This document shows positions 26,375 through 27,455 of a DNA stretch of 64,000 nt, piece after piece. Position numbers and translations under genes: made by a program. The DNA comes from Escherichia coli O127:H6 str. E2348/69 (GTDB lineage: Bacteria; Pseudomonadota; Gammaproteobacteria; Enterobacterales; Enterobacteriaceae), in NCBI RefSeq assembly GCF_000026545.1, contig NC_011601.1; one strand, written 5' to 3'. How positions within the stretch are numbered: the stretch's first letter is position 1; each line of letters starts with the position of its first letter. Below the pieces are notes generated by a model. That model saw only the letters and a program-made list of their open reading frames with translations. It made no database searches and was not told the origin of the DNA.

Positions 26375-26601
26375 TGGCTGATGCAATGGATCTCGTACAG
26401 CAGCGCGTTGAAGAAGAACGCCAGCGTCATATCCGTGCTGCCCGCGCCAAAACGCCGGGCGTATCCCGCGTGCTTTGCATTGAGTGTGAAGCACCAATTC
26501 CGCCAGCACGACGTCGCGCCATTCCGGGTGTGCAGCTTTGCATTACCTGTCAGGAAATCGCAGAGCTGAAAGGCAAACATTACAACGGAGGTGCTGTATG
26601 A
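26374..26601 (+). CDS. TraR/DksA-type C4 zinc-finger protein
   Basis: CIECEAPIP ... CITCQ four-Cys motif near C-terminus; translationally coupled to methylase gene. Confidence 0.65.
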   Translation: MADAMDLVQQRVEEERQRHIRAARAKTPGVSRVLCIECEAPIPPARRRAIPGVQLCITCQEIAELKGKHYNGGAV

Positions 26602-27455
26602 GCACCATCCTGAAATGGGCGGGTAATAAAACCGCCATTATGCCAGAACTGAAAAAATACCTTCCTGCTGGCCCGCGACTGGTTGAACCTTTCGCGGGTT
26701 CTTGTGCTGTGATGATAGAGACGGATTACCCCAGCTATCTTGTTGCGGATATTAATCCTGATTTAATCAACCTCTATAAAAAGGTTGCTGCTGATTGCGA
26801 GGCGTTTATATCTCGTGCCAGAGCTTTATTTGAGGAAGCAAACAGGGAGGTGGCTTATTACAACATAAGGCAGGAGTTTAATTACTCCACTGAAATTACT
26901 GATTTCATGAAAGCGGTATATTTCCTGTATCTCAATCGTCATGGTTACCGTGGGTTATGTCGCTATAACAAGAGCGGGCATTTCAACATTCCCTACGGGA
27001 ATTATAAAAATCCGTATTTCCCTGAAAAAGAAATTCGCAAATTTGCAGAAAAAGCCCAGCGAGCAACGTTTATCTGCGCCAGCTTTGATGAAACGCTGGC
27101 GATGTTGAAGGCGGGGGATGTGGTGTATTGCGATCCGCCTTATGACGGTACGTTTTCCGGCTATCACACTGATGGCTTCACTGAGGATGACCAGTATCAC
27201 CTGGCATCCGTTCTTGAACATCGATCATCTGAAGGTCATCCGGTCATTGTTTCTAACAGTGACACATCCCTGATTCGTTCGCTGTATCGCAATTTCACTC
27301 ACCACTACATCAAGGCAAAACGCAGCATCGGCGTGTCGGCTGGCGAGAGTAAATCTGCAACAGAAATCATTGCTGTTTCCGGGGCGCGCTGCTGGGTGGG
27401 ATTTGATCCTTCGCGTGGCGTGGATAGTTCTGCTGTGTACGAGGTGCGTGTATGA
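26598..27455 (+). CDS. DNA N6-adenine methyltransferase (Dam-like)
   Basis: N-terminal LKWAGNK and catalytic DPPY motif ([11 protein letters not shown]); start [11 protein letters not shown] at 26598. Confidence 0.85.

Follow-up and report, generated by a model that had tools for sequence, protein, structure and literature searches.

The dam-like gene and its neighbours

The window analysed here is a 64,000-nucleotide stretch of Escherichia coli O127:H6 str. E2348/69. It contains, between rcdA and ybjL, a 34-kb prophage of the Fels-2/RE-2010 type that is related to phage 186, and in the early operon of this prophage lies a dam-like gene whose product we call the prophage Dam. The features that make up its setting are as follows.

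24102..24677, minus strand: gene for the cI-type immunity repressor, in divergent orientation to the early operon (RefSeq "phage repressor protein CI")
24678..24796, no strand: switch region between cI and an apl-like gene, presumed by analogy with 186 to be the site of the early lytic promoter (the pR equivalent)
26141..26374, plus strand: DUF2732 gene, homologue of P2 orf80 (PF10809, 3.2e-29; RefSeq coordinates)
26374..26601, plus strand: TraR/DksA C4 zinc-finger gene, 75 aa, homologue of P2 orf82 (PF01258, 3.1e-11; TIGR02419, 65.8 bits; phrog_54)
26587..26591, plus strand: GGAGG, Shine-Dalgarno-like, for dam, within the 3' end of the zinc-finger gene (from the sequence)
26598..26601, plus strand: ATGA overlap of the dam start with the zinc-finger stop, TGA 26599-26601 (from the sequence)
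26598..27455, plus strand: dam-like gene for an orphan Dam-family N6-adenine DNA methyltransferase, 285-aa ORF (RefSeq WP_000104133.1, "DNA adenine methylase")
27441..27444, plus strand: GAGG, Shine-Dalgarno-like, for gene A, within the 3' end of dam (from the sequence)
27452..27455, plus strand: ATGA overlap of the gene A start, ATG 27452, with the dam stop, TGA 27453-27455 (from the sequence)
27452..29866, plus strand: replication gene A, rolling-circle initiator, 804 aa (Phage_GPA PF05840, 5.8e-128)

The ATG of dam at 26598 can be read directly within GTATGAGC, and one gene further upstream the DUF2732 stop and the zinc-finger ATG share 1 nt (TGATG). The first-pass annotation had placed a DPPY adenine methylase between a zinc-finger gene and gene A, and the ORF, its PF02086 match, and the domains of its neighbours all confirm this. 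The overlaps that it described on both sides of the gene are likewise real, although the wording "TGA/ATG" was loose, both being 4-nt ATGA overlaps. Neither annotation nor PADLOC identified a nuclease gene adjoining dam, which is flanked by the zinc-finger gene and gpA, and PADLOC ranks oMTase ("orphan methyltransferase," 3.8e-111) as the best model for the protein; the gene had thus been correctly called an orphan.

The gene order matches the annotated early operon of 186, and the order around cI parallels the annotated 186 switch. The 186 annotation notes that A can be translated only if the preceding gene is translated through to its end. Gene A contains, at approximately 29455-29490, a homologue of the ori nick site, mapped by alignment with the sites annotated in P2 and 186. 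A consensus scan of the sequence did not locate the early lytic promoter, and on the plus strand it found neither a promoter- or terminator-like site in the operon upstream of dam nor a separate promoter-like site inside the early operon. A hairpin early in gene A (approximately 27546-27573, −15.7 kcal/mol) was considered as a counterpart of the 186 tM1 terminator and rejected, as no T-run follows it.

Family membership and predicted specificity

The prophage Dam matches PF02086 over all of the profile (positions 1-253 of 253) with an E value of 2.8e-77 and a score of 260.3 bits, the cut-off being 22 bits, and it scores 325 bits against TIGR00571 ("dam"), above the cut-off of 114.85 bits. Structures of E. 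coli Dam (EcoDam; PDB 2g1p) match it with an E value of 2e-73, and in alignments it is 47% identical to EcoDam over 257 residues and 22% identical to T4 Dam. Such full-length identity to solved EcoDam structures fixes the fold. Judged by these profile and structure matches, the prophage Dam is a D12/Dam-family (alpha-group) methyltransferase, and the match has not arisen by chance. Against the host-Dam equivalog NF008152/PRK10904, its score of 288.6 bits falls under the cut-off of 441, placing it outside that group and showing that it is no mere copy of the host enzyme; EcoDam is the product of a housekeeping gene, whereas the prophage Dam is encoded by a phage gene in a lytic operon. Three segments of the protein, located by alignment, bear on its activity.

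26691..26705, plus strand: AdoMet-binding motif I, F32-A-G34-S-C36 (EcoDam F-V-G-A-G)
26946..27008, plus strand: DNA-recognition segment with Y117, R118, L120, R122, P132, and Y136
27132..27143, plus strand: catalytic DPPY, aa 179-182, invariant in the alignment with EcoDam and T4 Dam

These segments stand in the order of the alpha class, with motif I at aa 32-36, the recognition residues at 117-136, and DPPY at 179-182, and T4 Dam aligns with the same motifs. Compared with EcoDam, the prophage Dam has an arginine in place of N120 and a cysteine in motif I, lacks 5 residues after DPPY, and carries a 25-aa C-terminal tail that has no EcoDam counterpart. In motif I, the phenylalanine and the first glycine are invariant, and the cysteine takes the place of the second glycine. 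It could be taken as a mark of an inactive relic, an ORF that no longer methylates and is retained only as a spacer or coupling element for the translation of gene A, but the same position is occupied by a residue other than glycine in T4 Dam, an active GATC methylase. In the other aligned members, this column holds G, C, A, G, and L (the last in T4 Dam); it varies within the Dam family, and a strict FxGxG is therefore not required.

The residues that recognise DNA follow EcoDam closely. The recognition segment corresponds, in the same order, to EcoDam Y119, N120, L122, R124, P134, and Y138, and K6 corresponds to EcoDam K9. These seven EcoDam residues have described roles in contacting GATC, and loss of R124 abolishes discrimination of the fourth base pair (PMC4417163). 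Six of the seven contacts (the equivalents of K9, Y119, L122, R124, P134, and Y138) are kept in the prophage Dam, and these six are conserved as far as the 71%-identical Gegevirus homologue. The seventh, the base-contacting N120, is replaced by R118, and the alignments show this arginine to be fixed throughout the prophage-Dam clade.

Could R118 and the C-terminal tail permit adenine methylation beyond GATC and so give broad protection from restriction? Promiscuous alpha-class methylases of phages and prophages do exist (Drozdz et al., mentioned in PMC5778455), with a Serratia prophage enzyme as a further example (PMC7556043), and a relaxed or altered specificity would be in keeping both with the replacement of a base-contacting residue throughout the clade and with the score under the host-Dam equivalog cut-off. 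We nevertheless regard it as unlikely. The contacts that are kept include R124 and the L122/P134 pair; the N120 position also differs in T4 Dam, a bona fide GATC enzyme, in which it is a serine; and the prophage Dam shares far more identity with EcoDam (47%) than with T4 Dam (22%). With the equivalents of R124, L122, P134, K9, and Y138 all retained, the protein does not group with the nonspecific, T4Dam-like alpha-class phage methylases.

Membership of the Dam subfamily, the 47% identity to EcoDam, and the six contact-residue equivalents together make GATC specificity of the prophage Dam a strong expectation. In addition, a REBASE-derived table gives GATC for a methyltransferase found only in the two Salmonella strains that carry RE-2010 (PMC4661946), and the prophage Dam is 96% identical to the RE-2010 Dam. 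To call the specificity unknown, as had been done at first, was thus an overstatement. The literature that we searched, including reviews and Salmonella prophage papers, yielded no direct test of an enzyme from this clade, and our search found no methylome paper on E2348/69. Two sets of characterised E. coli prophage methylases were set aside as relatives: M.EcoGI and M.EcoGII, which are nonspecific, of the beta class, and unrelated, and M.EcoMIV of EC958, which is a 254-aa protein of a Mu-like prophage (with transposase, Gam, and Mor) and not the same gene. M.EcoMIV, described as a "prophage Dam homolog," was reported to be transcriptionally silent (PMC4659465), a result that does not transfer to the prophage Dam because it concerns a different gene in a Mu-like prophage.

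Related phages and the slot upstream of gene A

Of 5426 complete E. coli genomes, 1238 (≈23%) carry near-identical copies of dam, as do 53 phage records, and where a record is annotated, the gene is named a DNA (adenine) methylase or methyltransferase. Six alleles from phages of E. coli, Salmonella, and Klebsiella, every ORF of which is intact, gave dN/dS values of 0.12 to 0.31 across 15 pairwise comparisons. On this measure, dam is maintained by purifying selection.

The closest described system is the Dam ORF of the 34-kb retron-Ec67 element, or 186-related "retronphage" (Hsu, Inouye & Inouye 1990, PNAS 87:9454; Dodd & Egan 1996, Virology 219:115). That element reportedly codes for a Dam methylase (Hsu et al. 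1990, as cited by PMC7826664). The prophage Dam is 94% identical to ELD71839.1, likewise of 285 aa and named "retron EC67 DNA adenine methylase," and by way of this transferred protein name, we infer its identity to the original Ec67 protein. The Ec67 element is a 186-related prophage of ≈34 kb, the same kind as the E2348/69 prophage. In the abstract of its original description, it is said to map at 19 min, a position that fits the rcdA-ybjL site of the E2348/69 prophage. The two differ in the hotspot near the packaging genes, where the E2348/69 prophage carries no retron and a Shosta pair instead. Sister prophages of the Fels-2/RE-2010-type family carry the retrons Ec67 and Ec86. A further element, that of Klebsiella kp52145, which has been compared with Ec67, has a run of gene sizes equal to that in the window, 222/510/201/342/234/228/858 bp (PMC7826664).

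Among Fels-2, RE-2010 (ELPhiS), and related Felsduovirus, Elveevirus, and Gegevirus phages of Salmonella, Klebsiella, and E. coli, the Dam proteins are 71 to 99% identical in amino acid sequence to the prophage Dam, and they are annotated as DNA adenine methylase or methyltransferase. Identity to E. coli and Klebsiella phage alleles is 94 to 96%. The Fels-2/RE-2010 group differs from the E2348/69 Dam in alleles only, and the immunity regions vary between phages. The zinc finger-Dam-gpA order, with its overlaps, recurs in RE-2010, 813R9, Cartapus, ST437-OXA245phi4.1, and the kp52145 element. The Dam enzymes of T4/T2, P1, VT-2, and HP1 are orphan phage methylases with the specificity of host Dam and lytic expression (PMC7556043); they are only 22 to 35% identical to the prophage Dam, and their genomic contexts differ.

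Across the Peduoviridae, the slot upstream of A is filled by unrelated proteins, several of them DNA-modifying enzymes. P2 has only orf83 (DUF5405) between its zinc-finger gene and A, and the earlier statement that P2 lacks this methylase is therefore true. Wphi likewise has only orf83 (DUF5405) before A, its cytosine methylase being located elsewhere. The slot of 186 holds an exonuclease-like gene, a DUF5405 gene, and the PAPS-reductase-like orf84, and no Dam; that of SW3 holds Dam and Dcm, with Dcm overlapping the A start; and that of ESSI2_ev040 holds Dam. In P2, Wphi, 186, and ESSI2_ev040, the gene that closes the slot shares 4 to 11 nt with the start of A.

The 186 arrangement speaks for the relic reading in one respect: the quite different orf84 stands in the same position, and its translation is needed for A, so the coupling role of the slot does not depend on the type of enzyme encoded there. 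A mere spacer, however, would not be expected to show dN/dS values of 0.12 to 0.31 over the whole protein, nor catalytic and DNA-contact residues that are invariant across 29% sequence divergence, and we consider a relic extremely unlikely. The E2348/69 gene is an intact, well-conserved copy of a methylase first described in 1990, and the finding is real but ordinary.

Expression and the probable role of the prophage Dam

Taken as a whole, the explanation that we think probable is that the prophage Dam is an active, GATC-specific phage enzyme, made lytically with gpA, that keeps progeny DNA methylated. It would be an AdoMet-dependent N6-adenine methyltransferase belonging to the phage and not to the host, encoded by the Dam cassette that, in 186-related prophages of the Fels-2, RE-2010, and "retron-Ec67 element" type, occupies the variable slot between the zinc-finger gene and A. 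Transcription of dam would begin only once CI repression of the early lytic promoter lifts, and translation would proceed through the overlapping run of DUF2732, zinc finger, Dam, and A. Ribosomes that finish Dam would probably reinitiate at the A start, and the methylase and the replication initiator would therefore appear together. In the rolling-circle phase, scarce host Dam could not keep pace with the new phage genomes, and the prophage Dam would methylate the ≈119 GATC sites that each contains. Progeny would then carry fully methylated DNA, protected from GATC-cutting, methylation-sensitive restriction, and full methylation would also avoid the action of MutH and SeqA on unmethylated or hemimethylated phage DNA.

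A putative antirestriction role is plausible. For high-copy DNA, host Dam has been described as rate-limiting, and phage Dam has been treated as antirestriction (bioRxiv 10.1101/2020.06.22.160242). The role of phage Dam enzymes was described in 2020 as poorly understood so far (PMC7556043). Counting against the proposed benefit, all known hosts of the prophage Dam already possess Dam. In P1, cleavage at pac requires Dam methylation; packaging from cos, as in P2-like phages, is not known to have such a requirement.

The prophage of E2348/69 looks defective: its tape measure gene is frameshifted, a morphogenesis gene is truncated, and the baseplate block is inverted. The lytic role of Dam may therefore never come into play in E2348/69.

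The first-pass annotation had suggested, besides protection against host restriction, that the methylase might alter host gene regulation during lysogeny. As a lysogenic-conversion factor or epigenetic regulator, Dam made from the resident prophage would alter host expression or protect the host chromosome. Prophage methylases can indeed alter host transcription, as the Stx-phage enzyme M.EcoGIII does (PMC6602927), dam is intact even in this defective-looking prophage, and 23% of complete E. coli genomes carry it. Intactness is, however, explained equally well by recent acquisition together with selection in the phage population, as reflected in dN/dS. The position of the gene, deep in a rightward early operon opposite cI and lacking a promoter-like site of its own, makes a role in lysogeny unlikely. 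Moreover, in E. coli methylomes GATC is already ≈99.9% methylated by host Dam (PMC6602927), and extra GATC activity would be nearly invisible for this reason. Regulation of the host during lysogeny thus seems improbable to us, and the early suggestion of it went too far.

GATC sites in the prophage offer no guide to function. The 34-kb prophage has 119 of them, or 3.5 per kb, versus 4.9 per kb in the host flanks, with observed/expected ratios of 0.9 (mononucleotide) and 0.76 (Markov model), and we rejected these statistics as a clue because they amount to neither avoidance nor enrichment. The sole tight cluster, at 31265-31291, lies in the defence hotspot and not near dam, the ori, or the switch. 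A GATC-regulated origin was rejected, the nick-site homologue containing no GATC, as was a connection of dam with the GATC palindrome found at 24710-24721 within the cI/apl switch, because immunity regions differ among the phages that carry Dam.

The prophage Dam is already known: it is correctly annotated in RefSeq, it is common, and its family has been known for more than 30 years. Its novelty had been overstated: the gene is routinely annotated, ≈23% of complete E. coli genomes have it, and its family dates from the 1990 description of the retron-Ec67 element. It is very unlikely, though conceivable, that R118, the motif I cysteine, and the 25-aa tail confer a property that host Dam does not have. 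If they did, methylation by this Dam might extend, for example, to near-cognate sites or to GATC sites that regulators normally shield; a burst of Dam released by SOS derepression could reset phase-variation switches of the host, even where the prophage is defective, as in E2348/69; and the enzyme could act on msDNA-type defences, overproduction of Dam being a trigger of retron-Sen2 (bioRxiv 10.1101/2020.06.22.160242).

As a discovery, the prophage Dam matters little, and the window gives no new clue. The question that it touches is a general one and not specific to this locus, namely why phages of Dam-positive hosts carry a Dam of their own. With many members in E. coli, Salmonella, and Klebsiella and a Dam closely tied to the replication initiator, this clade would be a convenient system for that question.

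Organization of the dam reading frame and its neighbors

The adenine methylase gene considered here, dam, belongs to a prophage related to P2 and 186, about 34 kb long and inserted between rcdA and ybjL. The surrounding 10 kb (window 22000-32000) match the chromosome of enteropathogenic E. coli E2348/69, NZ_CP059840.2, at 100% identity. Its RefSeq neighbors are labeled 'TraR/DksA family transcriptional regulator' and 'replication endonuclease':

26374..26601 (+): zinc-finger gene, 75 aa, TraR/DksA-type C4 zinc finger (PF01258, 3.1e-11; TIGR02419, 65.8 bits versus 59.7)
26598..27455 (+): dam, 285-aa ORF, RefSeq 'DNA adenine methylase' WP_000104133.1
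27452..29866 (+): replication gene A, 804-aa protein with a Phage_GPA domain (5.8e-128)

The dam start codon, within GTATGAGC, shares bases with the zinc-finger gene's TGA, and the dam TGA overlaps the ATG of A at 27452, with ATGA at both junctions. Shine-Dalgarno-like sequences precede both starts: GGAGG (26587-26591) lies within the gene upstream of dam, and GAGG (27441-27444) lies within dam. Because the DUF2732 gene, one gene further upstream, ends in TGATG and thus overlaps the zinc-finger start by 1 nt, DUF2732, zinc finger, dam, and A form one overlapping run of four genes. These data confirm the first-pass annotation of a Dam-like DPPY methylase (the motif at residues 179-182) that sits between the zinc-finger gene and A and overlaps both. 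A longer TTG-initiated reading from 26538, taken from a mechanical ORF listing, was rejected since homologs, the RefSeq call, and the Shine-Dalgarno site agree on 26598. The G+C content of dam is slightly lower than that of neighboring genes (46.9% versus 53-56%), which is compatible with a cassette.

Family assignment and predicted target sequence

The protein matches the entire PF02086 (D12-class methyltransferase) profile (1-253 of 253; 2.8e-77) and scores 325 bits against the NCBIfam 'dam' subfamily model (cut-off 114.85), in agreement with its earlier assignment as a Dam-like adenine methylase, whereas its score of 288.6 against the host housekeeping Dam equivalog model falls below the cut-off of 441. 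Passing the first model and missing the second marks it, as judged by sequence, as a Dam-family enzyme distinct from the host ortholog. Among PADLOC models, 'orphan methyltransferase' fits best (3.8e-111), and neither the RefSeq neighbors nor PADLOC place a nuclease gene near dam; the gene encodes an orphan methyltransferase. M.EcoGI and M.EcoGII, considered as relatives, are both beta-class enzymes, and M.EcoMIV, the silent 'prophage Dam homolog' of E. coli EC958, is a different gene in a Mu-like prophage.

The closest solved structures are host E. coli Dam (EcoDam) entries (2g1p, 4gol, and others; E=2e-73, residues 4-260), with DpnM and T4 Dam next. In the multiple alignment, our protein shares 47% identity with EcoDam and 22% with T4 Dam, and all seven sequences have DPPY, the motif I residues F32 and G34, R122, and P132. 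The second glycine of FxGxG is Cys in our protein and Leu in T4 Dam, so the family may accommodate substitution there. Our protein ends in a C-terminal tail of 25 residues that EcoDam lacks.

In EcoDam, R124 is needed for any discrimination at the fourth base pair, where it contacts the guanine, L122 and P134 contact the neighboring third base pair of GATC, K9 and Y138 recognize the first, Y119 intercalates, and N120 hydrogen bonds to a base (PMC4417163). The equivalents of these contacts are K6, Y117, L120, R122, P132, and Y136, with R118 at the N120 position. Although this arginine might hint at relaxed specificity, that reading is disfavored by retention of the counterparts of R124, L122, P134, K9, and Y138. 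T4 Dam, a genuine GATC enzyme, has Ser in the N120 column, and the position is therefore not diagnostic. The Dam of RE-2010, a Salmonella prophage of Fels-2 type, is 96% identical to our protein, and the GATC methyltransferase M.Sen158III is found only in the two S. Typhimurium strains with the RE-2010 prophage (REBASE-derived table, PMC4661946). To call the specificity unknown was an understatement: homology to EcoDam with its kept contacts and, indirectly, the RE-2010-linked enzyme point to GATC as the predicted target.

Distribution, maintenance, and the slot upstream of A

Of 5426 complete E. coli genomes, 1238 contain DNA that matches dam at 90% identity or more, nearly always as a single chromosomal copy. 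So do 53 records of phages, most of them from Klebsiella, Salmonella, and E. coli; those with annotation call it a DNA (adenine) methylase or methyltransferase. A protein search returned 6286 clusters at E<=1e-40 across Enterobacterales. One member of the same 95%-identity cluster, ELD71839.1, is 94% identical and was named 'retron EC67 DNA adenine methylase' by its source. Hsu, Inouye, and Inouye reportedly described in 1990 a 285-residue ORF with 44% identity to E. coli Dam in the Ec67 retron element, which is said to map at 19 min, a position that fits the rcdA-ybjL site. As cited in PMC7826664, their element is 34 kb with 26-bp flanking repeats and encodes a Dam methylase; PMC6868368 credits Dodd & Egan 1996 with its later identification as a 186-related prophage. 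A Klebsiella element compared with Ec67 has gene sizes of 222, 510, 201, 342, 234, 228, and 858 bp, as here (PMC7826664). Given the Ec67 match and the 1990 description, knowledge of the gene family dates from 1990, and dam is a phage gene that is known and widely annotated.

At 90% identity, the 285-aa Dam falls in a cluster whose representative is an 804-aa gpA, and several database proteins join Dam to gpA (PF05840) or gpD (PF05954) domains (clusters P0002, P0023, P0024, P0071, P0075, and P0111). These are probably run-through calls across the ATGA or deleted prophage remnants, not real fusions.

We compared six alleles from E. coli, Salmonella, and Klebsiella phages (E2348/69, RE-2010, Kp4865-2, vB_EcoM-813R9, Cartapus, and ST437-OXA245phi4.1). 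All six ORFs are intact, with protein identities of 71-96% and Nei-Gojobori dN/dS of 0.12-0.31 in every one of the 15 pairs, and the catalytic and DNA-contact residues, R118 included, are all kept even in the 71%-identical member. Together, these features rule out a degenerate relic for practical purposes, and purifying selection on catalytic residues contradicts the idea that dam is a non-functional spacer.

P2 indeed lacks the methylase gene, as first noted: its zinc-finger-to-A interval holds only orf83 (DUF5405), as does that of Wphi. In phage 186, the interval contains an exonuclease-like gene, DUF5405, and the PAPS-reductase-like orf84 (the region upstream of A, 3104-4108, includes orf84), none of which is dam. 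Other Peduoviridae genera also have Dam in this slot: ESSI2_ev040 carries it overlapping A, and Salmonella phage SW3 (2998-5128) has Dam plus a cytosine methylase. The slot is thus a variable cassette site, often occupied by DNA-modifying enzymes, which suggests that Peduoviridae share a conserved 'DNA modification cassette' position upstream of A.

Prophage setting and proposed role

The E2348/69 prophage and its accessory genes are as follows:

about 20446 to about 54422: prophage span, integrase gene to ogr gene (RefSeq annotation)
about 41369-47137 and 49461-52537: damaged regions (annotation)
21585-23102 (-): KAP-family P-loop NTPase gene, between integrase and repressors
23128-24051 (-) and 24102-24677 (-): two tandem CI-type repressor genes
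31510-33049 (+): Shosta anti-phage pair, in the P2-type hotspot between a tum/DinI-like gene and the portal gene
31510-32085 (+): ShosT, 191-aa ORF, match 3.7e-14, PRTase-like 'VLLLDDVKTTGGS' motif; no annotation in the RefSeq record
32075-33049 (+): ShosA, PADLOC 2.8e-70, RefSeq label only 'DNA-processing protein DprA'

The prophage appears to be defective, with a frameshifted tape measure gene and a truncated virion morphogenesis gene; its baseplate/tail-fiber genes (V, W, J, I, H) form a block inverted with respect to the flanking late genes, near a Hin/Cin-type recombinase gene. In E2348/69, dam may be expressed only on repressor inactivation, and then without phage production.

The 191-aa repressor resembles 186 CI. 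The 307-aa repressor carries its N-terminal segment twice (GGQKVIERILLAYGFKSRQALCNHLGISQST... and GGKATIERIVEAYGYKTRQALADHLGISKST...), followed by a CI-like C-terminal part; such a duplicated-domain repressor adjoining the immunity repressor is unusual. PADLOC matches the KAP NTPase to candidate defense family PDC-S20 (5.1e-78), with weaker hits to PifA and QatA, and it is probably a second defense gene borne by the prophage. Retrons Ec67/Ec86 occupy the Shosta position in sister prophages, according to PMC6868368. Just upstream of ShosT are five GATC sites in 235 bp (31186-31420), three of them in 27 bp (31265-31291), the only tight GATC cluster of the prophage.

Our prophage scan found no informative GATC clustering near dam, the cI/apl switch, or the origin, whose homolog (about 29455-29490) contains no GATC. 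The switch itself has a perfect 12-bp palindrome, ATGCGATCGCAT, centered on GATC (24710-24721), with a TTGACG -35-like hexamer (24695-24700) 10 nt upstream of it, and a second GATC at 24748. The palindrome could serve as an operator or be sensitive to Dam; immunity regions vary among Dam-carrying relatives, so it has no link to dam. A hairpin early in A, positioned like 186 tM1, was dismissed because it has no T-run.

By homology, the enzyme would use AdoMet to methylate N6 of adenine in GATC. The gene order, with cI leftward and the apl-like gene, cII, fil, DUF5347, DUF2732, zinc finger, dam, and A rightward, parallels the annotated 186 early operon driven by CI-repressed pR, suggesting that dam would be expressed in the lytic phase. 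A consensus scan of the + strand from the switch to the end of dam detected no promoter- or terminator-like site, which is weak evidence since the scan also missed pR. The proposal that dam alters host regulation during lysogeny is unlikely, given its position within the early operon and methylation of about 99.9% of GATC sites by host Dam. Translation of A would be coupled to that of dam. According to the 186 record, complete translation of the gene just before A 'appears necessary for translation of A protein,' and dam, with its ATGA overlap, fills that place here.

Fully methylated genomes would resist DpnII/MboI-type enzymes and would escape MutH and SeqA, which would not have them as substrates. 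GATC occurs at 119 sites in the prophage, and the motif is not avoided. The benefit to the phage might be fully methylated progeny DNA, the weakest step of this scheme because PMC7556043 describes what phage Dam enzymes are for as 'still not well understood.' Endogenous Dam is reported to limit the methylation rate of high-copy DNA, and phage Dam to be regarded as anti-restriction (bioRxiv 10.1101/2020.06.22.160242); such a role is plausible for the protein described here.
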